Part shown: piece after piece, positions 5,159 to 40,977 of the stretch
Layout: the number at the start of each line of letters is the position of its first letter
How positions within the stretch are numbered: position 1 is the stretch's first letter
NCBI GenBank assembly: GCA_963592135.1
Contig: CAVAVP010000031.1
Location: 5,398-69,397, forward strand
Direction: 5' to 3'
From: a bacterium
GTDB taxonomy: Bacteria > Bacillota > Clostridia > Christensenellales > UBA3700
DNA: 64,000 nt
The notes under the pieces: model-generated
Database searches by the model: none
What the model saw: only the letters and a program-made list of their open reading frames with translations
What the model was told of the DNA's origin: nothing
Position numbers and translations under genes: made by a program

Positions 5159-6469
5159 ATGACAAGATATTTTCAAAAAGAAATAGAAACAATGCCAAGA
5201 AGTGAAATTGAAAAACTTCAAAGTGAAAGATTAATTAAGCAAGTAAAGCATGTATATAACAATGTAAAATATTATGCTAAAAAGATGGATGATGCTGGAG
5301 TAAAACCAGAAGATATTAAAAGTATAAAGGATTTACATAAACTTCCATTTATTGAAAAAGATGAACTTAGAGATCAATATCCTTATGGTTTTTTAGGAAC
5401 ACCACTTTCAGATGTTGTTCGTATACAATCAACATCAGGTACTACAGGAAGAAGAGTAGTAGCATTTTATACACCTGAAGACATTGATGTATGGGATACA
5501 TGCTGTGCTAGAGCTATTGTAGCCGCTGGTGGTACAAAAGATGATGTGGTTCATGTTGCGTATGGATATGGCTTATTTACTGGCGGTCCTGGTTTAAATG
5601 GTGGCTCTCATAAGTTGGGCTCAATGACACTGCCTATGTCATCAGGAAATACAGAAAGACAAATTCAATTTATGCAAGACTTGGGATCAACAATCCTTTG
5701 TTGTACTCCATCATATGCTGCAAATATTGGCGAAGTTGTAAAGAAAATGAATGTTAAGGATTCTCTAAAATTAAAAGCTGGTATTTTTGGTGCTGAACCT
5801 TGGACTGAGGAAATGAGACAAGATATTGAAAAAACTCTTGGAATTAAAGCATATGATATATATGGTTTAACAGAGATTTCTGGACCAGGAGTTTCTTTTG
5901 AATGTGAAGAACAAGAGGGTATGCATATTCAAGAAGACTTCTTTGCTGCCGAAATAATTAATCCAAAAACTGGTGAAGTATTACCATATGGCGAAGTTGG
6001 AGAATTAGTATTTACATGTTTAACAAAAAAAGCGTTTCCTCTTCTTAGATATAGAACAAGAGATTTATGTAAATTAACAATTGAGCCTTGTAAGTGTGGA
6101 AGAACTCATGTAAGAATGTCAAAGATTATGGGTAGATCTGATGATATGATGGTTGTAAAAGGTGTTAATGTATGGCCATCTCAAATAGAACAAGTAATAT
6201 TCAAACAAGGATATCAAGCCAACTATTTAATTGTTGTAGATAGAGAAAATAATAAAGATAGCATTGAGTTAAAATTGGAAAAAACTCCAGAAATGGCAGA
6301 AGATCTTAATTTTAATATTGAAAAAGCAACAATGAATGTTGTTAATGGACTAAAATCAATGCTTGGAATTAAAGTAGAGGTATCTCTTGTAGAACCAGGT
6401 GCAATTGTAAGAAGCGAAGGAAAAGCAAAGAGAGTTATAGATAAGAGAAATCTATATACTATGATGTAA
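5159..6469 (+). CDS. paaK: Phenylacetate-CoA ligase family enzyme (PaaK-like)
   Basis: 436 aa with SSGTTG (STSGTTGRR) and YGLTE adenylation motifs. Size and architecture match PaaK. It directly follows iorAB. Confidence 0.8.
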   Translation: MTRYFQKEIETMPRSEIEKLQSERLIKQVKHVYNNVKYYAKKMDDAGVKPEDIKSIKDLHKLPFIEKDELRDQYPYGFLGTPLSDVVRIQSTSGTTGRRVVAFYTPEDIDVWDTCCARAIVAAGGTKDDVVHVAYGYGLFTGGPGLNGGSHKLGSMTLPMSSGNTERQIQFMQDLGSTILCCTPSYAANIGEVVKKMNVKDSLKLKAGIFGAEPWTEEMRQDIEKTLGIKAYDIYGLTEISGPGVSFECEEQEGMHIQEDFFAAEIINPKTGEVLPYGEVGELVFTCLTKKAFPLLRYRTRDLCKLTIEPCKCGRTHVRMSKIMGRSDDMMVVKGVNVWPSQIEQVIFKQGYQANYLIVVDRENNKDSIELKLEKTPEMAEDLNFNIEKATMNVVNGLKSMLGIKVEVSLVEPGAIVRSEGKAKRVIDKRNLYTMM

Positions 6470-6472
6470 TAT

Positions 6473-7192
6473 ATGAATTCAATAGATTTTTCCACTTACC
6501 TAAGAGAAACAAATATTTTAGATTATTCAAATAAGAATATACAATCTTTAATTGTTTCACATGGGTGGAAAAATCTAGAAGAGTTGGATAAAGTTAAATC
6601 TATTTATAATTTTGTTCGTGATGAAATCTTATTTGGTTATAATGTCGATGATAATATAAAGGCCTCTAAAGTTTTAAAAGATGGTTATGGCCAGTGTAAT
6701 ACAAAAGGTATTTTATTTATGGCATTATTAAGAGCCTGTGACGTACCTTGTAGAATTCATGGTTTTACTATTGATAAGTTGCTGCAAAAAGGCGCGATGA
6801 CCGGCTTGGTTTACAAATTAGCGCCTAAAGAAATATTTCATAGTTTTGTTGAAGCATATGTTTGTGGCGAGTGGTTTGAACTTGAAGGTTTTATTTTAGA
6901 CGATAAATATCTTGTTAGTTTACAAAGAAAGTTTAAGCCAAATCCAGATAATTCATTTTGTGGGTATGGAGTTGCTATAAATGACTTTTATAATCCACCT
7001 ATCAATTTTGAATGTTGCAATACATATATACAAAAAGAAGGAATAGTTAAAGATTTTGGAGTTTATGAAAGTCCAGATGTTTTGCTTGAAGAGCATGGAC
7101 AAGAAATGTGTGGTTTAAAAAAAATGTCTTATAAGTATATTGGCAGAAAAATAATGAATAGGAATGTTAAAATAATAAGAAATTATAACTAA
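6473..7192 (+). CDS. Transglutaminase-like cysteine protease-fold protein
   Basis: GYGQCNTKGILFMALLRACDVPCRIHGF matches the transglutaminase-core Cys motif context (G-x-C-x-x-F). Confidence 0.55.
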   Translation: MNSIDFSTYLRETNILDYSNKNIQSLIVSHGWKNLEELDKVKSIYNFVRDEILFGYNVDDNIKASKVLKDGYGQCNTKGILFMALLRACDVPCRIHGFTIDKLLQKGAMTGLVYKLAPKEIFHSFVEAYVCGEWFELEGFILDDKYLVSLQRKFKPNPDNSFCGYGVAINDFYNPPINFECCNTYIQKEGIVKDFGVYESPDVLLEEHGQEMCGLKKMSYKYIGRKIMNRNVKIIRNYN

Positions 7193-7201
7193 GAGGTTTA
7201 T

Positions 7202-7561
7202 ATGATAGTACATGAATCTCAAGAAATGTATTTAGAGACAATACTTAAATTAAAAAAATCACAAGAAGTTGTAAGAGCAATAGATGTTGTAAAAAAATTA
7301 GGATATAGTAAACCTAGTGTATCAAGAGCTATGAAACTATTGGTCAATGAAAAACTTATTACAATTCAAAGAGGAAAAATAGAATTCACGCAAGAAGGCA
7401 GTGAAAAAGCTAAGGCTGTTTTAGAAAGACATAATGCATTGACTAAGGCTTTGGTTAAAATTGGACTTTCTAAAAGTGAGGCTGAAGATAATGCATGTAG
7501 GATAGAACATGTATTAACTCAAGAAGCTTTTAATAAAATAAAAGATTATTTTAATATATAA
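7202..7561 (+). CDS. DtxR/MntR-family metal-dependent transcriptional regulator (short form)
   Basis: 119 aa. ESQEMYLETILKL plus a wHTH (SKPSVSRAMKLL) and RHNAL...RIEHVL align with the MntR N-terminal and dimerisation helices. Confidence 0.6.
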   Translation: MIVHESQEMYLETILKLKKSQEVVRAIDVVKKLGYSKPSVSRAMKLLVNEKLITIQRGKIEFTQEGSEKAKAVLERHNALTKALVKIGLSKSEAEDNACRIEHVLTQEAFNKIKDYFNI

Positions 7562-8984: not shown

Positions 8985-9140
8985 CGATAGATATTTGCAG
9001 GAGAAGACTTTTAGTCATCGAAGGAGTAACACTCTCAGAAGCTTATGCGTAGGACTGTAAATGGACGGCACTCCGGAGAAGCCTAAGGAAAAGGTACCGA
9101 AGTGGCAAGCGAAAGCTAATCTCTCAGGTAAAAGGACGGG
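8985..9140 (+). promoter_or_regulatory. Tandem glycine riboswitch (two aptamers)
   Basis: Aptamer 1 is GGAGAAG...CATCGAAGGAGTAA...CTCTCAG...GGACTG. Aptamer 2 is CTCCGGAGAAG...TACCGAAGTGGCAA...CTCTCAGGTAAAAGGAC. Both match the conserved GGAGA / CCGAAGGrGCAA / CUCUCAGGyAAAAGGAC cores. It sits upstream of an AGCS transporter, a classic context. Confidence 0.8.
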
Positions 9141-9167
9141 GAAAACATAAAAGAGTTTTTCGTTGTT

Positions 9168-12617: not shown

Positions 12618-12632
12618 CATATTACAATAAGA

Positions 12633-12722
12633 TTTCTGTTACTGACGGATTAGTGGAGTACCACATGGGAGCAGAAAAATATAATTAGAAAGAGAAACTT
12701 TCAGCCGACCGTCTGGGCGCAC
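12633..12722 (+). promoter_or_regulatory. ZTP (pfl motif) riboswitch
   Basis: The 5' subdomain TTCTGttaCTGACGGATTAGTGGagtaCCACATGGGAGCAGAA and the 3' pseudoknot strand CCGACCGTCTGGGCG match the ZTP consensus (GACUGrCGG...GUGG..CCAC..GGGAG // CCGnCCGyCUGGGC). It lies upstream of purine biosynthesis genes. Confidence 0.8.
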
Positions 12723-12753
12723 ATATCTATAAGAAGATAGGTGCGCCCTTTTT
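12715..12753 (+). terminator. ZTP riboswitch expression-platform terminator
   Basis: GGGCGCACATATCT / AGATAGGTGCGCCC stem plus TTTTT. The 5' arm reuses the GGGCGC of the aptamer pseudoknot strand, which is ON-switch logic. Confidence 0.7.
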
Positions 12754-29843: not shown

Positions 29844-31448
29844 TCAGCTCTTTATTTGATGTTTGCAAGCTGCAAGTACAAATTCTCTAAATAAAGGATG
29901 AGGGTGATTTGGACGAGATTTAAATTCTGGGTGATATTGTACACCTACAAAGAAATCCTCGTTTTCAATTTCAACTGTTTCAACTAAATGTCCATCTGGT
30001 GAAGTGCCAGTTACTTTTAGCCCACCTTTTATAAGTTCATCTCTATATTCGTTATTATATTCGTAACGATGTCTATGTCTTTCACTTATTTCAAGTTTTC
30101 CATAAGCCTTTTTCATTATAGAATTAGAAACTATTTTACAAGGATAAGCTCCAAGTCTCATAGTGCCGCCCTTTATTAAACCTTTTTGATCAGGCATTAA
30201 ATCTATAACTAAATGTTTGCTGTTTTCATCAAACTCTCTTGAATTAGCATCCAAATAACCAAGAACATGTCTTGCAAACTCGATAACAGTTATTTGCATA
30301 CCTAAACAAATTCCAAAATAAGGAACATGATTTTCTCTTGCATATTTGCATGCAGATATCATACCTTCAATTCCGCGATTGCCAAATCCTCCTGGCACAA
30401 TAATACCTCCACAATCTTTAAAAATTTCTGGAGCTGACTCTTTGGTTACATCATCGCTATTCACCCATTTTATAGTTAAGTTTCTTCCGGCAATATAACT
30501 TGCATGACTTAAGGCTTCAACAACGGATAAATAAGCATCGTGAAGTTTAACATATTTTCCAACAAGAGCAATTTTCACTTCACCTTCTCTTGCATGAATA
30601 GTATTAACCATATTCTCCCATGGCTTTATATTAATAGGCCTTTCTTCAAGTCCGAGTTCTCTTAATGCAACAACATCAAGTCCGTTTTTGTGCAACATTA
30701 AAGGTGCTTCATAAAGACAAGGCAGTGTAGTGTTTGAAATAACACAATCGACAGGGACATTACAAAATAGCGAAATTTTCTTTTTTATTCCTTCATCTAT
30801 TTCGCTATCTGTTCTTGTAACAATAATATCCGGTGAAATACCAAGAGACTGCATTTCTTTTACAGAATGTTGTGTAGGTTTTGTTTTAAACTCATCAGAT
30901 CCTGAAATGTATGGAACTAAACATACATGAATAAATAAGCAATTTCTTCTGCCTACCTCTAAGGATAGTTGGCGAATAGCCTCTAAAAATGGTTGAGATT
31001 CTATATCTCCTACTGTGCCTCCAATTTCAGTAATCATAATATCTGCTTTTGTGGTCTCGGCATTTTTCTTTATAAAAGCCTTAATTTCGTTTGTAACGTG
31101 AGGAATAATTTGTACCGTTTCGCCTAAGTATTCACCACGTCTTTCTTTATTTAAAACGTTCCAGTAAACTTTGCCTGAGGTTAGGTTAGAATATTTTGTT
31201 AAGTTTTCATCAATAAATCTTTCATAGTGTCCTAAGTCTAGGTCGGTTTCAGCACCATCTTCTGTTACATAAACCTCTCCATGTTGAAACGGAGACATAG
31301 TCCCTGGATCAACATTCATATATGGGTCTAATTTTTGAGAAGCAATTTTGTAGCCCCTTAATTTTAAAAGTCTACCTAAAGAGGCCGCAGTAATGCCTTT
31401 GCCTAATCCTGAAACAACACCACCAGTTACAAAAATAAATTTAGTCAT
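29844..31448 (-). CDS. pyrG: CTP synthase
   Basis: 534 aa. [31 protein letters not shown]. Confidence 0.9.
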
Positions 31449-31470: not shown

Positions 31471-32193
31471 TTAATTTGCTGTATATAATCTTTTATATGG
31501 GTTTGCAGAGTTTGGTTTTAACACAAAAAAATGCTCTTTCATTATTGAATTCGCGTTTAGATTAAAGTCACTTGCAAATTCTTCAATATATGTTTTTATT
31601 TCATTTAATTCATCAATGCCTGCATCTTCACAGTTTACTTGTGGAGGAAGTGGAGAAGTAATAGTTGTTCCTCTTAAAAATATTTTGCCACCATGCATGC
31701 CAACTCCTGTGAAATTTCCTACAATATCTTTATCTTGTTCAAGATTAAGAACAATTATTCTACCCCCGGCCATATACTCGCCTAAAAAAGAACCAACTTT
31801 TCCGCCAATTATAATTAAAGGAAATTTCTCCTTATATGCTTTCATATGTATGCCAGTTCTATATCCTGCATTGTTTCTTATAAATATTTTTCCGCCACGC
31901 ATGGCGTATCCAGTAGCATCACCAGCACATCCATGAACTATGATTTTTCCATCATTCATCGTATCTCCAACTGCATCTTGAACAGAACTATTAACAATTA
32001 TGTTGCATCCATCCATATATGAGGCTAGAGCATTACCAGGTACGCCATTTATAGTAATATTTTTACCATTAACTCCAGATGCTATATACCTTTGTCCTAC
32101 TATGTTATTTAAAACTATATCGCAATCATCGCTATGTCGAACGTATTCACATATTTCTTTGAAACCTAAATCTTTACAATCAATAATTTGCAT
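31471..32193 (-). CDS. Glutamate synthase GXGXG-domain subunit (GltB C-terminal domain as a separate protein)
   Basis: 240 aa of repeated G-x-G beta-helix motifs ([45 protein letters not shown]). Confidence 0.75.
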
Positions 32194-32202
32194 AAAATTC
32201 TC

Positions 32203-33708
32203 CTATTCGCCAGCGTGCATTATGCCTAGTATTTCTAATTCTTTTTCTGTCAAACCAATGCCGCGTAACATTAATCTATTGCCACGAAGAGCCTCTATAG
32301 AGTTTATCCCCATTCCGCCCATAATCTCTTTAATTTCATTAGTCCAAGCATTTATAAGATTTGTAAGTCTTACAACGCCTTCTTCAGGATTTAATCTCTT
32401 TGTCAATTCAGGTATTTGTGTTGCTATACCCCAGTTACATCTGCCTAGGTGACATGATCTACATAAATGACATCCAAGTGCCATAAGGGCAGCTGTTGCA
32501 ATATAACAAGCATCTGCACCAAGAGCTATTGCTTTAACAACATCAGAAGATGACCTTATAGAACCTCCAACAATTAAAGATACTTTATCTCTTATTCCTT
32601 CATCTCTAAGTCTTTTATCAACAGCAGCAAGTGCGAGTTCAATTGGAATTCCTACATTATCTCTAATTCTAGTAGGAGCAGCACCCGTTCCGCCTCTAAA
32701 TCCATCTATGGCAATAATATCAGCACCTGATCTTGCAACACCGGATGCTATTACTGCCACATTATGTACAGCTGCTATTTTTACAATAACGGGTTTTTTG
32801 TATTCGGAAGCTTCCTTTAGAGAGTAAACTAATTGTCTTAAATCTTCGATTGAATATATATCATGATGTGGAGCAGGAGATATTGCGTCACTGCCATGAG
32901 GAATCATTCTTGTTCTTGAAACATCTTCGCTTACTTTAGAGCCAGGTAAATGTCCACCAATTCCTGGTTTAGCGCCTTGTCCCATTTTTATTTCAATTGC
33001 AGCTCCTGCATTTAAAAAGTCTTTATTTACTCCAAAACGACCTGATGCAACTTGAACTATTGTGTTAGGACCATATTTATAAAAATCCTCATGAAGACCG
33101 CCTTCACCAGTATTATATAAAATGCCTAATTCTTCAGCAGCCTTTGCAAGGGAAGCATGCGCGTTATAACTTATAGAACCATAACTCATGGCAGAAAACA
33201 TTATAGGCGTGGATAATTCTATTTTTGGTGGTAAGTTATTTATAATTTTTCCATTTTTGTCTCTTAAAATTTCAGAAGGTTTTGCGCCTAAAAAGGTTTT
33301 AGTTTCCATTGGCTCACGAAGCGGGTCAATTGGTGGATTTGTAACTTGAGAAGCATTGATTAATATTTTATCCCAATATACCGGATAATTTTCAGGATTT
33401 CCCATTGATGACAGCAAAACACCGCCTGTTGTTGCTTGTCTATAAATTGAATTGATATTTGCGCTAGACCAGTTTGAATCCTCTCTAAATACATTGTTGG
33501 ATTTAACTATTTTAAGAGCATGTGTAGGACATAACGCAACACATCTATGACAATTTACACATTTTGTTTCATCTGCAAGCATTATATTATGTTCACTGTC
33601 AAAGGTGTGAACTTCATTTGAGCATTGAGATTCACAAAGTCTACATTTTGTACATCTATTGTCATTTCTTTCTATTTCATATTGAGGTTCAATAAGATGA
33701 ATTGCCAT
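32203..33708 (-). CDS. Glutamate synthase FMN/Fe-S domain subunit with an N-terminal 2x[4Fe-4S] ferredoxin domain
   Basis: CTKCRLCESQC and CVNCHRCVALCP, then GltB domain-2 motifs (ISPAPHHDIYSIEDL, GGTGAAP, CHLCRSCHLGRC). Confidence 0.8.
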   Translation of the reverse strand: MAIHLIEPQYEIERNDNRCTKCRLCESQCSNEVHTFDSEHNIMLADETKCVNCHRCVALCPTHALKIVKSNNVFREDSNWSSANINSIYRQATTGGVLLSSMGNPENYPVYWDKILINASQVTNPPIDPLREPMETKTFLGAKPSEILRDKNGKIINNLPPKIELSTPIMFSAMSYGSISYNAHASLAKAAEELGILYNTGEGGLHEDFYKYGPNTIVQVASGRFGVNKDFLNAGAAIEIKMGQGAKPGIGGHLPGSKVSEDVSRTRMIPHGSDAISPAPHHDIYSIEDLRQLVYSLKEASEYKKPVIVKIAAVHNVAVIASGVARSGADIIAIDGFRGGTGAAPTRIRDNVGIPIELALAAVDKRLRDEGIRDKVSLIVGGSIRSSSDVVKAIALGADACYIATAALMALGCHLCRSCHLGRCNWGIATQIPELTKRLNPEEGVVRLTNLINAWTNEIKEIMGGMGINSIEALRGNRLMLRGIGLTEKELEILGIMHAGE

Positions 33709-33709
33709 A

Positions 33710-34798
33710 TTATTTTACCTCCTTATTAACTTTAATAATTATCGCTTCTCCACCTTTAGGGTAGTATGTATTATAAGCATCAGGACATATTTGTCTAATA
33801 GCACTTTCTTCGCTAGATATATATTTCATATCGTTTTTTTCTGCTATTACCATTGAACGTAGCTTAAGTCTATCATTAAGAGCCATAAGTCCCCCAGTAA
33901 AGCCTACAATAATAGAAAAAGGTCCAGTAATTAACTGTGAAGAGAATACATTTCTTAAAAATTTTTCTTTTTCTTGTTCTTCTTTTGGCATTTTTTCAAT
34001 TGTGTCCCAAAATGGTGCGGCTATTACACCGGCTGTTTCTTTTAGTGTAAGACCCTTTTTCCTTGTTAGGTAATCAATTATGTAAGTTATAACTTCAGTG
34101 TCTGTTTGAAGTGTGCATTTATAGCCATACATTTCCATGGCTCGTTTATTTGCATCATATGAGGATATCTCGCCGTTATGGACTACAGATAAATCTAAAA
34201 GCGAAAATGGATGAGCGCCACCCCACCACCCAGGAGTATTTGTTGGGTATCTGCCATGAGCAGTAAAGGAATAACCTTCATATGAATCTAACATATAAAA
34301 TCTTCCAACATCTTCTGGAAATCCTACTGCTTTAAAAATGCCCATATTTTTCCCTGACGAAAAAATATAAGCACCATTTATTTCAGTATTAATTTTAAAA
34401 ACTGATCTAAAAACATAATCATCTTCTTTTAGTTGAGCAGCATCTAATTTTGTTTTTAGGGGAGTAACAAAGTATCTCCAAATCAGTGGTGCATCTGTAA
34501 TTTCTCTTATTTGTTTTGTAGGAATTTTAGAAAGATTTACAATATCATAGTATTCTTCTATATATTCCTCGCATTGTTTTTTTGAAAGAGAGTCTGAATA
34601 AAAAATATGAAAAGCGTAATAATCTTTATACTCTGGATATATTCCATAGGCGGCAAAACCGCCTCCAAGACCATTTGACCTATCGTGCATAACAGCTATT
34701 GATTTAATAATATCTTCGCCAGAAAATTTTCTTCCACTAGTTGAAATCATGGCAGCAACAGCACAACCGGATGGATTACGAAATTGACCCTCTAACAT
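33710..34798 (-). CDS. Glutamate synthase class II (Ntn) glutamine amidotransferase subunit
   Basis: 362 aa with an Ntn Cys after an 11-residue propeptide (..NPSG-CAV), then HGRYPTNT and HNGEI motifs. Confidence 0.75.
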   Translation of the reverse strand: MLEGQFRNPSGCAVAAMISTSGRKFSGEDIIKSIAVMHDRSNGLGGGFAAYGIYPEYKDYYAFHIFYSDSLSKKQCEEYIEEYYDIVNLSKIPTKQIREITDAPLIWRYFVTPLKTKLDAAQLKEDDYVFRSVFKINTEINGAYIFSSGKNMGIFKAVGFPEDVGRFYMLDSYEGYSFTAHGRYPTNTPGWWGGAHPFSLLDLSVVHNGEISSYDANKRAMEMYGYKCTLQTDTEVITYIIDYLTRKKGLTLKETAGVIAAPFWDTIEKMPKEEQEKEKFLRNVFSSQLITGPFSIIVGFTGGLMALNDRLKLRSMVIAEKNDMKYISSEESAIRQICPDAYNTYYPKGGEAIIIKVNKEVK

Positions 34799-34834
34799 AT
34801 ATCTCTCCTTATTTTTTTAAGCCTTATATCTTAC

Positions 34835-34878
34835 AAAAAAAAATAGGCGTCAATCTTCCATATGGTTGATTGAACGCC
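34835..34878 (-). terminator. Intrinsic terminator inside the 5' leader of the split-GOGAT operon (attenuator)
   Basis: Minus strand: GGCGT(T)CAATC...GATTGACGCC followed by TATTTTTTTTT. It lies between the promoter and the RBS. Confidence 0.7.
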
Positions 34879-34910
34879 ATTGTTCGTTGTTTGATAAAAA
34901 ATATATTTTG

Positions 34911-34939
34911 ATTTTATGATTTTCAAAAACACTTGTCAA
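34911..34939 (-). promoter_or_regulatory. Promoter of the split-GOGAT/pyrG operon
   Basis: Minus strand: TTGACA, 17 nt spacer, TAAAAT. Confidence 0.6.
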
Positions 34940-35060
34940 TTACAAATAGCATTTTTTTAGATAGATTTTTCCTTGATATATTGCCAATATTTATATAAAA
35001 TATTGATGGAGAGAACAGCGATATTTTTGTTGTATTTTACAAAAAAAAAAGAAAAAATTG

Positions 35061-35089
35061 TTGACACAAAAAATAAGTCTTGGTATATT
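35061..35089 (+). promoter_or_regulatory. Promoter of the type III glutamine synthetase gene
   Basis: TTGACA, 17 nt spacer, TATATT. Confidence 0.6.
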
Positions 35090-35113
35090 ATAGCCATATA
35101 AATAAGTCAGCAA

Positions 35114-35150
35114 GGCGCTGTGGATTAATGTATCCATAGTGCCCTTTTTT
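35114..35150 (+). terminator. Intrinsic terminator inside the 5' leader of the type III GS gene (attenuator)
   Basis: 12-bp stem GGCGCTGTGGAT / ATCCATAGTGCC (two G-U pairs), loop TAATGT, then CTTTTTT, about 45 nt before the ATG. Confidence 0.7.
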
Positions 35151-35195
35151 ATTTATGAAAACAACAAAGATTAACTTTTAAGGAGAAATATAAAT

Positions 35196-37283
35196 ATGAC
35201 AAACATTCCAGAATTATTTGGCTCAATGGTATTCAATGATTCGGTAATGAAAGAAAGATTACCTCATGAAACTTACAAAGCAATGCATAAGACCATTCAA
35301 GAAGGTCAATCATTGGATATAACAGTTGCAAATGTAGTTGCTAATGCTATGAAGGATTGGGCAATTGAAAAGGGTGCAACTCATTACACTCACTGGTTCC
35401 AACCTATGACTGGTGTTACCGCAGAAAAGCATGATAGTTTTATTTCACCAACAAAAGAGGGAAATATAATAATGGAGTTTTCTGGAAAAGAATTGATTAA
35501 AGGAGAACCAGATGCTTCATCATTCCCATCAGGAGGTTTAAGAGCAACCGCAGAAGCTCGTGGGTATACAGCCTGGGATCCAACATCTTATGCTTTTATT
35601 AAAGATAAATGTTTATGTATTCCAACAGCCTTTTGTTCATATACAGGGGAAGCCTTAGATAAAAAGACTCCACTTTTACGTTCTATGGCTGCAATTAATA
35701 AGCAAGCTTTAAGAATTTTAAAATTATTTGGAGACCCCGCAACTAAAGTTTCTACAACAGTAGGACCTGAACAAGAATATTTCTTAATTGATGAAGACAT
35801 ATACGAAAAAAGAAAAGATTTAATTTATACAGGTCGTACATTATTTGGTGCTCCAGCTCCAAAGGGGCAAGAAATGGAAGATCACTACTTTGGTGTTATT
35901 AAGCCTAGAGTTCAAGCTTTTATGGACGATTTAAATGTGGAGTGTTGGAAACTTGGTATTTTAGCAAAAACAGAGCACAACGAAGTTGCACCTGCTCAAC
36001 ATGAATTGGCTCCAATTTTCTCAACAACAAATATTGCAACAGACCATAACCAAATCTTAATGGAGTTATTACAAAAAGTTGCAAAGAAACATCACATGGT
36101 ATGTTTGCTTCATGAAAAGCCATTTGATGGAGTAAACGGTTCAGGCAAACATAATAACTGGTCTATAGGAACAGATAAAGCAAACTTATTAGAGCCAGGT
36201 GAAACACCAGCAGAAAATGCAAAATTCTTGGTATTTTTAGCTGCTGTAATTAAGGCTGTTGACGAGTATCAAGATTTACTTAGAATCTCTGTTGCATCTG
36301 CAGGAAATGACCATAGATTGGGCGCTAATGAAGCACCTCCAGCTATTGTTTCAATGTTTGTTGGTGATGAACTTCAAGCAGTACTTGATTCAATCGAAAG
36401 CGGTATTAAATATGAGGGCAAAAAGAGAGTTCAAATGAAAATTGGTGTAGATGTTTTGCCAAAGTTCCCTAAGGATACTACAGATAGAAACAGAACCTCG
36501 CCATTTGCATTTACTGGAAACAAATTTGAGTTCCGTATGGTAGGATCTGCAGATTCAATTGCTTGTGCAAATATTATGATTAATACAGCAGTGGCTGAAG
36601 AATTAAGACAATTTGCAGACGAACTTGAAAAGGCAACAGATTTCCAAACAGCGTTAAATTCATTGGTTAAAAAGACTATTAAAGAACATAAGAGAATTAT
36701 CTTTAACGGAAATGGCTATGACGATGCATGGATAAAAGAAGCAGAAAAGAGAGGACTTTTAAACTTAAAGACAACTCCTGAAGCTTTGGTTAGATATACT
36801 GATAAGAAAAATCTTGAATTATTTAAAATTCATGAAGTATATACTGAAACTGAAGTTAAGGCAAGACAAGAAATCTTATTTGAAAACTATGCAAAATTAA
36901 TCAATATTGAAGCATTAACAATGATTCAAATGGTTAAAAAGTCTATTTTGCCTGCCATATCTTCTTACTCAAAAGAAATCGCTGATACAATTTTAAAGAA
37001 GAAGGAAGCAATTAAGGATATAGATTGTTCATATGAGGAATTACAATTAAAGAAAATGTCAAAATATAGTGCAAAGATGCTTGAAGATGTTCAATCACTA
37101 GAGGCTGCTGAAAAGAAAGCATTTAGGATTGAAGAAGCACAAGATAGAGCAATGAGCTTTATGCAAGAAGTTTTACCTTTAATGTCAGCAGTTAGAGCAA
37201 GTTCAGATGCACTAGAAACTACTGTTTCTAAGAAGTGTTGGCCTTTCCCGACATACGGAGACATCTTATTCTCAGTAAAATAA
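35196..37283 (+). CDS. glnN: Glutamine synthetase type III
   Basis: 695 aa, N-terminal [32 protein letters not shown] and [16 protein letters not shown] motifs characteristic of GSIII. Confidence 0.9.
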
Positions 37284-37320
37284 AAAGAGAATAAAACTAT
37301 AATATAAAAACGCAATGGTT

Positions 37321-37356
37321 GCGAGATTTAGTTTAGGCTAAATCTCGCATTTTTTT
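37321..37356 (+). terminator. Intrinsic terminator between glnN and asnB (terminator/attenuator)
   Basis: GCGAGATTTAG / CTAAATCTCGC stem, loop TTTAGG, then ATTTTTTT. Only 33 nt remain before the asnB ATG, with no promoter in between. Confidence 0.7.
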
Positions 37357-37389
37357 AAGAGAGAAATAAATATTAGGAGAGAAGTAGAT

Positions 37390-38973
37390 ATGTGTTCAAT
37401 TATGGGAATCGAAGGGTATGAAATACCACTAGAGGAATTTAAAAAGAGTTTTGATAAAACTATATCAAGAGGACCAGATATGTCAAAGGTTATTGACATA
37501 GGTTTAGGATATTTAGGTTTTCATAGATTAGCAATTATGGGTCTAACAAAAGAAGGTATGCAACCAATGTCTTTAAATGATGAATATGTTGTATGCAATG
37601 GTGAAATTTATGGTTTTAGAAAAATAAAGGAAGTATTAGAAATAGAAGGATATAAATTTAAAAGCGATTCAGACTGCGAGATATTATTACCACTTTATGA
37701 AAAATATGGTGTAGAGATGTTTAAAAAATTAGATGCAGAGTTTGCTTGCATAATTTTTGATTCGAAAACAAAAGAGTTTATAGCAGCAAGAGATCCGATT
37801 GGCATAAGACCACTTTTTTATGGGTATACAAAGGGTGGAAAAATAATGTTTGCAAGTGAAGCTAAAAACTTAATGGGACTTACGGATAAAATAATGCCAT
37901 TTCCACCAGGTCATTATTATAAAAATGGAAAATTTATTTGTTATAGAGATGTAACAAAAGTGGATAAATACAACTATGATGGTTTAGAAAGTATTTGTAA
38001 GAACATTAAAGAAAAACTAATTACAGGCATCGAAAAAAGACTAGATGCTGATGCACCACTTGGGTTTTTGTTATCTGGCGGATTAGATAGTTCTCTTGTT
38101 TGCGCAGTGTCAGCAAAAATACTTGGAAAGAAAATTAAAACATACGCAATAGGTATGAGTGAAGATGCTATAGATTTAAAGTATGCAAAACAAGTTGCTG
38201 AGTATATAGGCTCTGATCATCATGAGATTATAATCACAAAAGAAGATGTTTTATCCTCACTAGAGAAAGTAGTAGAAATTCTAGGTACTTTTGATATAAC
38301 AACAATACGTGCTTCTATGGGAATGTATTTAATTTGTAAAGCAATTCATGAACAAACTGATATAAGAGTTTTGTTAACAGGTGAGATATCCGATGAATTG
38401 TTTGGATATAAATATACAGATTTTGCGCCAAATGCTGAAGAATTCCAAAAAGAATCGGTAAAAAGAGTTAAGGAATTATATATGTATGACGTGCTTCGCG
38501 CAGATAGGTGTATAAGTGTAAATTCGCTTGAAGCAAGGGTTCCTTTTGGAGATTTAGATTTTGTTGAGTATGTTATGAGTATAGATCCTGATAAAAAAAT
38601 GAATAAATATAATATGGGTAAATATTTATTAAGACATGCATTCGAAGATACGCACTGCTTGCCGGATGCTATATTGTTTAGGGATAAAGCTGCATTTTCG
38701 GATGCAGTAGGGCATTCTCTTGTAAATTATCTAAAGGCATATGCTGAAATTGTCTATACAGATGAGGAATATGAAAAATTAAGAAAGAAATATACACATG
38801 CTACACCATTTACAAAGGAATCTTTGCTTTATAGAGAAATCTTTGAGAAATACTATAAAGATCAAGGTGAAATGGTAGTAGATTTTTGGATGCCAAATAA
38901 ATCTTGGGAAGGGTGTAATGTAAACGACCCATCAGCAAGAGTACTTTCTAACTATGGCAACAGCGGAAAATAA
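37390..38973 (+). CDS. asnB: Asparagine synthase (glutamine-hydrolysing)
   Basis: MC-SIMG Ntn Cys2 and the PP-loop FLLSGGLDSS. Confidence 0.85.
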   Translation: MCSIMGIEGYEIPLEEFKKSFDKTISRGPDMSKVIDIGLGYLGFHRLAIMGLTKEGMQPMSLNDEYVVCNGEIYGFRKIKEVLEIEGYKFKSDSDCEILLPLYEKYGVEMFKKLDAEFACIIFDSKTKEFIAARDPIGIRPLFYGYTKGGKIMFASEAKNLMGLTDKIMPFPPGHYYKNGKFICYRDVTKVDKYNYDGLESICKNIKEKLITGIEKRLDADAPLGFLLSGGLDSSLVCAVSAKILGKKIKTYAIGMSEDAIDLKYAKQVAEYIGSDHHEIIITKEDVLSSLEKVVEILGTFDITTIRASMGMYLICKAIHEQTDIRVLLTGEISDELFGYKYTDFAPNAEEFQKESVKRVKELYMYDVLRADRCISVNSLEARVPFGDLDFVEYVMSIDPDKKMNKYNMGKYLLRHAFEDTHCLPDAILFRDKAAFSDAVGHSLVNYLKAYAEIVYTDEEYEKLRKKYTHATPFTKESLLYREIFEKYYKDQGEMVVDFWMPNKSWEGCNVNDPSARVLSNYGNSGK

Positions 38974-38996
38974 TTGTTTCAAATTATTTCTCTCTA

Positions 38997-39040
38997 TACC
39001 GACGCTCAGTTCTCTCCCATGATGAGCGCCGGTACTTTTA
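38997..39040 (+). terminator. Terminator after asnB
   Basis: TACCGACGCTCA / TGAGCGCCGGTA stem (1 mismatch) plus CTTTT. Confidence 0.55.
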
Positions 39041-39065: not shown

Positions 39066-39094
39066 TTGAATAGTGAATTGCTTTTTATTATAAT
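39066..39094 (+). promoter_or_regulatory. Promoter of the GS-like / ANTAR operon
   Basis: TTGAAT, 17 nt spacer, TATAAT, 28 nt before the ATG at 39123. There is no leader terminator here. Confidence 0.6.
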
Positions 39095-39122
39095 AATTAA
39101 AAATAAAAACACGAGGTGTGTT

Positions 39123-40403
39123 ATGAATCGTTCGGAAAGAGATGTATTAGATTTTATACAAGATAATGATGTTAAGTTTGTAAAACTAGCTTTTTGCGAT
39201 GCACTTGGAAACTTAAAAAACGTATCAATTTACGCAGATGAATTAGAAAATATTTTTGAAAAAGGTATAGCAATAGAAGAGGAAGCTTTTGATGGGATAG
39301 CTTCATATGAAAATGGAGATATTAGATTATTTCCAGACCCATCAACATTACACCTTCTTCCATGGAGACCACAACAAGGTGCAGTTGTTAGAATGTATTG
39401 TACACTAAAGCATCCGGATGGAACTATAGCGGAATGTGATGGTAGAGCTTTACTTAAAGCTGCTCAAGAAAAGTTGGCATCACTTGGATATACTTGCGCA
39501 ATAGGTTCAGATTGTGATTTTTACTTGTTTGAACTTGATGAAAAAGGAAAACCTACATCTATTCCTTATGATAATGCAGGTTATTTAGATTCAGCCCCAC
39601 TTGATAAAGGCGAAAATGTAAGAAGAGAAATATGCTTTACACTAGAAACTTTTGGGATTAGACCATCTTCTTCTCATCATGAAAAAGGACCAGGACAAAA
39701 TGAAATCTTATTTAACTATAATGATGCTCTTTTAGCTGCGGATGATTTGATTTCGTTTAAATCGACAGTAAAGTCAGTGGCAGAAAAGAATGGATTATAT
39801 GCATCATTTCTCCCAAAGCCTTTAAACAATGAAGAGGGTAGTGCTCTTCGTGTTAAGTTTAGGTTGAAAAAAGATGGAGTAAATTTCCCAACAGATTCTA
39901 AAGAAGTAAAAAGTTTTTTAGCTGGCATTTTGAATAAAATATCTGAAATAACACTATTTTTAAATCCTACACCAAACTCTTATGATAGATTTAAATTTGA
40001 TAAATCACCTAAATATATAGGTTGGGCAGAACAAAAATACAACCAAGTAATAAGAGTAAGTGGACACAGGGTTGCAGTTTATTCGGCAGACCCATCTTGT
40101 AATCCATATGTTGCTTATGCGCTTTTATTGTATGCTGGTGCAGAAGGACTCGAGAAAAATATGGAACTCCCATTGCCTATAGGAGAATCTATACAAGAAG
40201 TTAATAAAAATTTATATAAATCTTTGCCACTAAGTTTAGAGCAAGCAATAAAGGAGGCTAAAGAAAGTAATTTCCTTAAAGAATATATTCCATTAAAGCA
40301 TTTAGAACAATTTATAGCCTATAAAGAAAACGAACTAGAAGACTATAACATGGCTTCAAATAAAGAGAAATTTTTAAATGATAAATATTTTGGAAAGATA
40401 TAG
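39123..40403 (+). CDS. Glutamine synthetase type I-like protein with degenerate catalytic residues (probable pseudoenzyme/sensor)
   Basis: It aligns along its whole length with GlnA (FDG, HHEKGPGQNEI, NSYDRF, DPSCNPY). The catalytic motifs are altered: GSDCDFYLF, EGSALRV, YNQVIRVS, RVAVYSAD. Start set at ATG 39123 (ACGAGGTG RBS), not the TTG at 39063. Confidence 0.7.
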   Translation: MNRSERDVLDFIQDNDVKFVKLAFCDALGNLKNVSIYADELENIFEKGIAIEEEAFDGIASYENGDIRLFPDPSTLHLLPWRPQQGAVVRMYCTLKHPDGTIAECDGRALLKAAQEKLASLGYTCAIGSDCDFYLFELDEKGKPTSIPYDNAGYLDSAPLDKGENVRREICFTLETFGIRPSSSHHEKGPGQNEILFNYNDALLAADDLISFKSTVKSVAEKNGLYASFLPKPLNNEEGSALRVKFRLKKDGVNFPTDSKEVKSFLAGILNKISEITLFLNPTPNSYDRFKFDKSPKYIGWAEQKYNQVIRVSGHRVAVYSADPSCNPYVAYALLLYAGAEGLEKNMELPLPIGESIQEVNKNLYKSLPLSLEQAIKEAKESNFLKEYIPLKHLEQFIAYKENELEDYNMASNKEKFLNDKYFGKI

Positions 40404-40413
40404 GGAAAATTAA

Positions 40414-40977
40414 ATGGCAGATCTTCTATATGTATCAGTATCTCCAATACCTACAGAGTTGGCACAGCTTTTAAAAAGAGCTGGGTATCATTCATACGAT
40501 TTAGCAAAATCTGCAGGGGAGGCTAGAAGATTAATAAATTTGCGTCAATATGACGAAATAATTATTGCATCGCCACTTCCTGATGAGCTTGGAGATAAAC
40601 TTGCTCTAGATATAGCATTAGATACATCATCAAATATAATTTTTATAGCAAAACCTGAGGTTGTTAGCTTAATTGAGTTTAAGATGGAAAGCAATGGAAT
40701 TGTAGTATTTGCAAAGCCAGTGTCAGGAAGTTTGCTTTATAAGGTTTTAACCATTTTTAAAGCGGTAGATAGGAGAATGAGTGTTGTCTTAGAAAAGAAT
40801 AAAAAGCTTGAAGATAGGATTGAGGAAATTAAACTTGTATCACGTGCAAAAATGATATTAATGTCAAAAATGGGAATAAGTGAAGAAGAGGCACATAAAC
40901 ATTTAGATAAAACAGCAAAAGATCAAAGAAAAACAAAAAGGGAAATTGCACTTGCAATTATTCAAATGTATGAATAG
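40414..40977 (+). CDS. ANTAR-domain RNA-binding antiterminator with a pseudo-receiver domain (NitR-like)
   Basis: C-terminal ANTAR (LVSRAKMILMSKMGISEEEAHKHLDKTAKDQRKTKREIALAII). The N-terminal receiver fold lacks the DD pocket and the phospho-Asp (VSVSPIP, IIIASPLPD). Confidence 0.8.
   Translation: MADLLYVSVSPIPTELAQLLKRAGYHSYDLAKSAGEARRLINLRQYDEIIIASPLPDELGDKLALDIALDTSSNIIFIAKPEVVSLIEFKMESNGIVVFAKPVSGSLLYKVLTIFKAVDRRMSVVLEKNKKLEDRIEEIKLVSRAKMILMSKMGISEEEAHKHLDKTAKDQRKTKREIALAIIQMYE

Follow-up and report, generated by a model that had tools for sequence, protein, structure and literature searches.

A single-hexaloop hairpin overlapping a terminator as a candidate ANTAR-dependent attenuator of a split glutamate synthase operon, and a conserved family of related leaders

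How could transcription of an operon for ammonium assimilation get past a strong intrinsic terminator standing in its own leader? This question is raised by a 64,000-nucleotide stretch of DNA (the window) from a bacterium of the Christensenellales, in which the operon for a split glutamate synthase (GOGAT) is preceded by a promoter, a small hairpin and a terminator that shares bases with this hairpin. In our analysis, the most probable answer (at a probability of roughly 0.78) is that the GOGAT leader would function as a transcription attenuator dependent on a NitR/ANTAR-type protein and working via a single hexaloop hairpin. What we establish here is the sequence anatomy of the element, its conservation, its covariation and its association with particular genes. 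ANTAR/NitR control of glutamine synthetase (GS) and GOGAT genes is already known; what appears to be new is a family of putative single-hexaloop attenuators.

The leader is read on the minus strand. The promoter of the operon consists of a -35 box (TTGACA, 34939-34934), invariant in the relatives L001 and L002 described below, and, after a 17-nt spacer, of a -10 box (TAAAAT, 34916-34911), the two boxes together scoring 11/12 in a promoter scan and placing the predicted start site near 34904. Then come an AU-rich stretch of 25 bases with zero G (34910-34886) and the candidate ANTAR site, a putative antiterminator hairpin of 4 bp, GAAC-AAUGGC-GUUC (34885-34872). Its arms GAAC (34885-34882) and GUUC (34875-34872) enclose the loop AAUGGC (34881-34876), a hexaloop with A at position 1, G at position 4 (A1 and G4) and a C-G closing pair. 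The intrinsic terminator (34878-34835) begins within this loop. Its 5' arm GGCGUUCAAUC (34878-34868) and its 3' arm GAUUGACGCC (34855-34846) form a stem of 10 pairs with one bulged U around a 12-nt loop, which could yield two inner pairs more, and the stem is followed by UA and a U9 tract (34843-34835). Seven bases (GGCGUUC, 34878-34872), i.e., G4 to C6 of the hairpin loop plus the whole 3' arm, are thereby shared with the 5' start of the terminator. The ribosome-binding site (RBS) AAGGAGAG (34810-34803) and the ATG of the first GOGAT gene (34798-34796) lie downstream. The initial annotation of this DNA had pointed to the TTGACA-17-TAAAAT promoter, to a strong terminator with T9 ahead of the RBS and to GAAC-AATGGC-GTTC at 34872-34885 sharing bases with the 5' arm of this terminator, and all three were found as it described them.

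Folding the leader, a check that had been suggested along with these claims, gave -26.2 kcal/mol for the whole leader (z = -5.3 against shuffles), with a terminator (-15.5 kcal/mol) that far outweighs the small hairpin (-1.6 kcal/mol). When the hairpin is forced to form, the leader retains -5.7 kcal/mol and the pairs beside the U-tract are gone. The terminator is absent from the calls of a simple terminator scan because its loop exceeds 8 nt. As promoter-like sites are not enriched in the AT-rich spacer (5 found versus 5.6 expected in the scan), the case for the promoter comes from its conservation in L001 and L002 and from the fact that 73 of 105 family members are laid out in this way. In the minimum free energy fold of the full leader (34910-34796, minus strand), the AU-rich 5' end pairs with the RBS region (AAGGAGAGAUAUA), a pairing which may be an artefact of composition and is not kept in L002.

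The arrangement is not confined to the window. Scanning one genome per species with the 362-aa glutamine amidotransferase (GATase) subunit of GOGAT returned 80 loci (L001-L080), the closest belonging to an uncultured Christensenella (96% identity in this subunit) and the remaining ones to Clostridia, several Spirochaetes, a Flexilinea and others. In most of the related leaders there is a near-invariant (U)GAAC-AAAGGC-GUUC, and from its loop GGC onwards the sequence forms the 5' arm of a following hairpin. Searching all loci for NNNC-AA[N]GG[C/U]-GNNN, we found 136 of 539 core 10-mers (25%) to be fully paired, as compared to 3.5% in a reversed-core control (a 7-fold enrichment), and for 105 of these 136 hairpins there is a downstream complement to the segment running from loop G4 through the 3' arm, and then a U-rich tail. 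Across the 80 related genomes, the hairpin overlapping a terminator follows the pattern NNNC-AA[A/U]GG[C/U]-GNNN, and 65 of the 81 sources (the related loci and the window) have at least one hairpin-plus-terminator unit, with a maximum of three per locus. Mean free energies in the family are -2.3 kcal/mol for the hairpin and -26 kcal/mol for the terminator, the inner length of which varies from 8 to 147 nt (median 32).

The genes behind these units are those of ammonium assimilation and amide synthesis: the GOGAT GATase subunit (52 units), glnN (16), asnA (16), asnB (4), amtB or an amtB-PII fusion (3) and the GOGAT flavin mononucleotide (FMN) subunit (1). The stems differ with the target, GAAC/GUUC standing before GOGAT and CAGC/GCUG before glnN and asnA, and further stems include AGAC/GUCU, ACAC/GUGU, GCAC/GUGC and UGAC/GUCA; altogether, 21 stem types occur, and 14 instances carry a G.U pair. 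In L029, a copy of the motif stands before the gene (5604-7376, minus strand) of an ammonium transporter with a P-II domain fused to its C-terminus (Pfam Ammonium_transp plus P-II). A long-terminator class (L016, L019, L031, L038, L047, L053 and about 20 more GOGAT leaders) has an almost invariant stem CAUCA-G-AU.../...AU-G-UGAUG, in which a G.G mismatch, five pairs up from the shared base, is conserved as well, and this conservation exceeds what a terminator stem should require. Conversely, both the hairpin motif and an ANTAR gene are missing from the loci of six orthologous GOGAT operons (L003, L013, L022, L024, L052 and L054), which include those of the third-closest relative, L003, and of two archaeal metagenome-assembled genomes; the attenuator is therefore not universal for the GOGAT operon.

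Both helices are supported by covariation. In an ungapped alignment of 85 units (A1) from which the variable terminator apex was removed, the small hairpin is 100% paired and shows 74 double-change cells versus 21 in shuffles (0/500), while the 11 basal terminator pairs are 98% paired and show 237 versus 64 (0/500); these counts are cells and not independent events, in related sequences and in units chosen for pairing. Three of the four hairpin pairs covary, the closing C-G being invariant, as are A11, A12, G14 and G15 in all 85 sequences, and both signals are lost when the partner columns are slid. The view of the initial annotation that this is a leader attenuator ahead of the split GOGAT, in which the hairpin competes with the terminator stem, is thus borne out as far as comparison can carry it: the hairpin-plus-terminator unit is conserved at orthologous operons, and two alternative helices that share bases both covary in relatives. 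A covariance model built from A1 ranked the GOGAT leader, which is in its seed, first in the window (29.4 bits, E 0.002), and second a leader outside the seed, the one of glnN (22.9 bits, E 0.035). The element appears to be undescribed: at gathering thresholds, Rfam gave nothing relevant to the leader in the whole window and no match for the element in L016, L019 and L047, and at E <= 10 over 34700-37450 it gave no match except one chance ToxI. A text search of the literature, whose reach did not extend to the original 2007 NitR study, found no match to the motif strings.

The glnN leader is one of two sibling elements in the window. The gene, which encodes a type III GS, is divergent from the GOGAT operon, and promoter and terminator scans and folding place the element at 35061-35153 on the plus strand. 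It comprises a strong extended -10 promoter (TTGACA, 35061-35066; TGgTATATT, 35081-35089), a hairpin CAGC-AAGGC-GCUG with a pentaloop (35108-35120, -3.4 kcal/mol) and a 12-bp terminator starting from G35114 (35114-35143, U-run to 35153, -20.3 kcal/mol). Its loop AAGGC is one A shorter than the family loop AAAGGY; the orthologous glnN leaders at 16 loci have CAGC-AAAGGY-GCUG, and the glnN site of L002 has a true hexaloop, AACGGC. The second sibling lies in the spacer between glnN and asnB, where a hairpin CGC-AAUGGU(U)-GCG (37311-37323, plus strand) overlaps a 12-bp terminator GCGAGAUUUAGU...GCUAAAUCUCGC (37321-37348, -17.8 kcal/mol) followed by A and U7 (to 37356). This element is conserved in L001, and at the corresponding position, there upstream of amtB, L002 reads CGC-AAAGAC(U)-GCG. 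Judging from its sequence features, it is probably a third attenuator of the same kind, and it is the weakest of the three because the family model gives no match to it. Both siblings are kept in the closest relatives, L001 and L002. Neither they nor the large conserved family nor the absence of a second, upstream hairpin had been part of the initial annotation.

Which protein might act on these leaders? A NitR-like protein of 187 aa encoded at 40414-40977 (plus strand), made of a pseudo-receiver and an ANTAR domain (Pfam PF03861, E 7.8e-15), is the proposed trans-acting antiterminator. Among sequences in the PDB, it matches Rv1626 (7.6e-13), AmiR (2.3e-9), EutV (5.8e-7) and NasR (1.2e-4). That it might be an isolated protein, as the 5 matches of a word-indexed search could have suggested, was discarded when an iterated hidden Markov model search over the loci found 39 homologs in the 81 sources. 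The earlier proposal that the leader depends on this gene is consistent with the presence of a NitR-like gene in 38 of the 80 related loci as well as in the window. In related loci it usually stands at the end of the GOGAT cluster, glnA (type I GS) lies directly upstream of it in 34 of the 39 cases, and leader motif and ANTAR gene occur together in 30 of the 46 loci with enough flank. As judged from its length, domains and gene neighbourhood, the protein has the traits of the NitR type (about 190 aa, receiver-like plus ANTAR domains, glnA-adjacent and GOGAT-clustered) known from Clostridium saccharobutylicum.

The hexaloop itself also points to an ANTAR protein. In the classical substrates of these proteins, two hexaloop hairpins, P1 and P2, are joined by a short linker (5-12 nt in eut; PMC3369931). 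The seed alignment of Ramesh et al. 2012 (PMC3369931) includes eutG P1 (GUGUAC-AAUGGC-GUAUAC), eutP P1 (AAACAC-AAUGGC-GUGUUU), eutA P2 (UUAAGC-AAAGGC-GCUUAA) and nasF P2 (GGAU-AAAGGC-GUCC). The window element, with AC-AAUGGC-GU, has the loop and closing pairs of eutG and eutP P1, and the family form GC-AAAGGC-GC has those of eutA P2, its loop AAAGGC being also the one of nasF P2. The annotation of the hexaloop as being of ANTAR type is hence in agreement with hairpins studied experimentally, loop and closing pairs alike. In the EutV-RNA complex, four residues hold G4, including a stacking Tyr164 (PMC8934654). At these G4-contact positions, the window protein would retain two residues (K146 and E157) and not Arg142, and the position of Tyr164 aligns with His161, as in AmiR.

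The receiver-like domain of the NitR-like proteins departs from the phosphorylatable type. Among 37 family members, the residue equivalent to CheY D12 is S in 32, that of D57 is N in 30 and that of T87 is V in 24, K109 being kept; the acidic pair is Ser/Ser in NitR-like proteins, and the window protein has S or A at the D57 position. By its sequence, the receiver of the window protein is a pseudo-receiver like that of AmiR. Since a phospho-acceptor Asp is missing, the protein probably responds to nitrogen status through a partner protein or a ligand and, because glnA and nitR are almost always adjacent, one may speculate that GS or PII is this partner.

The main departure from known substrates is the number of hairpins. 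Features by which Ramesh et al. 2012 delineated ANTAR targets are present in the leader, i.e., an A1/G4 hexaloop, a stem of at least 3 bp with conserved closing pairs, overlap with a terminator and an ANTAR gene in the genome, and so is, at the level of sequence, the minimal single hexaloop of Walshe et al. 2022. The dual P1/P2 arrangement of Ramesh et al. 2012 is the exception: the leaders of the window have no tandem pair of hexaloops, and none of the three window hairpins is preceded within 60 nt by another A1/G4 hairpin, even of 2 bp. In the family, upstream P1-like hairpins occur at chance level (14/105 versus 10.8 +/- 2.8 in shuffles), as do second A1/G4 hairpins inside the terminators (13 versus 9.5 +/- 2.8). 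The distance from the -10 box to the hairpin has a median of 10 nt and is 6-13 nt in 63 of the 73 units with a recognisable promoter, so that in most relatives the hairpin would start within a few bases (1-6 nt) of the predicted 5' end; the window and L001, in which the -10 box ends 25 nt before the hairpin, are outliers, and their extra bases contain no G.

Double hexaloops are rare. In the searches for P1-like and in-terminator hairpins, a second hexaloop site was found only in L063 and L039. L063 has two tandem copies of CAGC-AAAGGU-GCUG (minus strand, 1723 and 1694) separated by a 15-nt linker, and in L039 (plus strand, 1649 and 1678) the second hairpin, AGGC-AAUGGU-GUCU, lies in the terminator apex. 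L023 (plus strand, 9685 and 9828) has two complete attenuators in series.

On this basis, the following mechanism can be proposed, in which the start site, protein binding, the signal and the direction of regulation are predictions. Transcription would start at the sigma-70-type promoter and, by default, the nascent leader would fold into the strong terminator and the polymerase would stop at U9, before the RBS. The GAAC-AAUGGC-GUUC hairpin would be transcribed first and, alone, be far too weak to compete. An active dimer of the NitR-like ANTAR protein (40414-40977) would bind the hexaloop through contacts expected to be those of EutV, i.e., A1, a flipped-out G4 and the C-G closing pair, and would hold GGCGUUC, the seven basal bases of the 5' arm of the terminator. 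With the basal pairs beside the U-tract lost, the upper stem could not terminate, and read-through would extend into the split GOGAT and, in all probability, pyrG. Ammonium assimilation would be brought under common control by further copies of this device, one in the glnN leader and a probable one in the glnN-asnB spacer, and the input would probably be a partner protein or a ligand reporting nitrogen status, with GS and PII as speculative candidates. It is also tempting to speculate that, where a recruitment hairpin is lacking, the protein gains its time for binding from the terminator apex, which is long and variable and may thereby take over the role of P1 in eut. Whether the scheme can be generalized is, in our estimation, an evenly balanced matter: NitR-type ANTAR proteins may antiterminate via one hexaloop at the extreme 5' end of the transcript, without P1, as a large conserved RNA family that controls GOGAT, glnN, asnA, asnB and amtB in Clostridia and is also represented in Spirochaetes and other gut anaerobes.

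Other readings of the same sequence have to be weighed. The GAAC-N6-GTTC repeat could be a 14-bp DNA operator for a dimeric repressor at or just past the start site, the terminator being unrelated or constitutive; indeed, in most relatives it stands 6-13 bp past the -10 box, the classic position of a repressor site, and at many loci it is a perfect palindrome. The arms of the repeat covary through 21 stem types, with no fixed half-site, and 14 instances have G.U pairs, which make sense only in RNA, while the part that does not vary is the asymmetric "spacer" AAAGGC. Moreover, intergenic copies are found far from promoters (glnN-amtB, glnN-asnB), the 3' half always pairs with a downstream segment followed by a U-run in a pairing that itself covaries, and the fully paired motif is enriched over the reversed control. 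We rejected the operator, to which we give hardly any credence, on four grounds: covariation, G.U pairing, an invariant loop that is asymmetric, and copies between cistrons. That the hairpin is incidental, and the terminator an unregulated leaky dampener or the end of an upstream or antisense transcript, seems very improbable as well, even if the hairpin is very weak (-1.6 kcal/mol) and 4-bp stems around an A..G.. loop arise often by chance: the window contains the 10-mer ACAAWGGCGT a single time, versus 0.08 expected, and in Clostridia, Spirochaetes and one Flexilinea genome the hairpin is preserved exactly, with its loop sequence and in the same register to the terminator, despite diverging flanks.

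It is unlikely, although less so, that the hairpin is an antiterminator stabilised by a factor other than an ANTAR protein, such as another RNA-binding protein, a small RNA or a metabolite. Binding of an ANTAR protein to the hairpin is here deduced by analogy, the element is covered by no Rfam family in the scans reported above, and seven loci with the motif have no ANTAR gene within 10 kb; yet in these seven the gene may sit elsewhere in the genome, about half of the 20-kb loci contain an ANTAR gene, and proven ANTAR sites have the same loop and closing pairs. A riboswitch in particular was rejected, since only the 14-nt hairpin is conserved and the apex is variable, leaving an element too small and plain for a ligand pocket. 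Of the CsrA, PyrR, TRAP and RAT-type consensus sequences (GGA loops, GAG/UAG repeats, the RAT sequence), none is seen in the leader, although no formal search for them was made.

The attenuator controlled by an ANTAR protein through one hexaloop is itself weakened by several observations. Deletion of P1 or a change in linker length abolishes the EutV-dependent induction of eutP (PMC3369931), and the siblings in the window do not have hexaloops, their loops being of 5 nt (AAGGC) and 7 nt (AAUGGUU), the second of them being without a match to the A1 covariance model at E <= 10. Among the 46 loci with enough flank, the motif occurs without an ANTAR gene within 10 kb in seven, and an ANTAR gene without the motif in the GOGAT leader in five. 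The crude terminator test also passes 38% of permuted arms, and given this permissiveness we relied on the covariation of the 11 basal pairs instead; covariation in turn overstates the number of independent events, as pairing was a selection criterion for the motif sets and the sequences share ancestry.

The genes around the leader fit a nitrogen cluster. By Pfam assignment and the same gene order in related loci, the split glutamate synthase operon (31471-34798, minus strand) comprises the GATase_2 subunit (33710-34798), the FMN/iron-sulfur subunit (32203-33708) and the GXGXG subunit (31471-32193), with pyrG (29844-31448, minus strand) 22 nt past the latter. In the opposite direction (plus strand) run glnN, asnB, glnA and the ANTAR gene. 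The glnA gene (39123-40403, plus strand; type I GS by Pfam), directly 5' of the ANTAR gene, has no attenuator and is preceded by a promoter-like site (TTGAAT-17-TATAAT, about 39067-39095, plus strand), so that expression of the regulator here seems not to depend on the attenuators; in most relatives, unlike in the window, the regulator gene lies downstream of the attenuated GOGAT operon. On the 3' side of asnB (38990-39040, plus strand), a hairpin CCGaCGCUCA...UGAGCGcCGG has a weak U-tail and no ANTAR-type hairpin. Elsewhere in the window, there are a ZMP/ZTP riboswitch (54.6 bits, 12628-12725, plus strand) ahead of purE/purF-like genes and a glycine riboswitch aptamer (46.7 bits, 9063-9149, plus strand) ahead of a sodium:alanine symporter gene.

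ANTAR regulators are widespread and few of their RNA targets are defined; the textbook cases are all dual hairpins, and genome searches use dual-hairpin models. This locus and its approximately 100 relatives form a natural test set in which single hexaloops are wired to terminators before core genes of ammonium assimilation, in hosts many of which are gut and termite-gut anaerobes. The family could supply a seed for a covariance model to annotate nitrogen regulons in uncultured Clostridia, and it points to a pseudo-receiver ANTAR protein as the putative regulator. If our interpretation is correct, the dual motif would not be a general requirement for co-transcriptional ANTAR antitermination, and a family absent from Rfam would escape dual-hairpin models.

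How does this element compare with known systems? With regard to gene content, a close parallel is NitR of C. saccharobutylicum (glnA-nitR, gltAB), an ANTAR protein next to glnA which, according to a later paper citing Stutz et al. 2007 (PMC6316151), is held to antiterminate GS/GOGAT genes on nitrogen limitation; as far as that account goes, the window differs in its Christensenella-like organism and in its targets, a split GOGAT, a type III GS and asnB. In Clostridium thermocellum, the ANTAR regulator Clo1313_2030 sits in a GS-GOGAT cluster (PMC4676874) which, like the window, unites a split GOGAT, GS and an ANTAR gene. Table S2 of PMC3369931 also has dual-hairpin ANTAR RNA matches that precede genes for GS, GATase and GOGAT, in Desulforudis, Carboxydothermus and Desulfitobacterium. 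As for control of the protein, AmiR-AmiC and NasT-NasS, in which a partner governs the ANTAR protein, likewise have a receiver-like N-terminal domain without a phospho-acceptor Asp, and AmiR is among the best PDB sequence matches of the window protein; unlike in these systems, no amiC- or nasS-type partner gene is evident, the constant neighbour being glnA.

Regarding the RNA, the dual-hexaloop leaders recognised by EutV (eutP, eutG, eutS and eutA of Enterococcus faecalis), NasR (nasF of Klebsiella oxytoca) and AmiR (amiE of Pseudomonas aeruginosa) (PMC3369931) share with the GOGAT leader a short stem, an A1/G4 hexaloop, a conserved closing pair, a hairpin whose 3' half is the 5' base of a terminator, nitrogen-related targets and an ANTAR effector, here a predicted one. 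They differ in having two hairpins, P1 and P2, where the GOGAT leader has one. In the EutV-RNA crystal structure of Walshe et al. 2022, an ANTAR dimer contacts one hexaloop and the minimal motif is a single hexaloop; these authors called for a search of single-hexaloop sites and left their natural role open (PMC8934654). One hexaloop per ANTAR dimer as the minimal unit is likewise what our scheme would require. Walshe et al. 2022 expected single sites where the transcribing polymerase sets no time limit and kept the dual motif for antitermination; the single hexaloops of the GOGAT family, by contrast, sit in putative attenuators, where they overlap the terminator.

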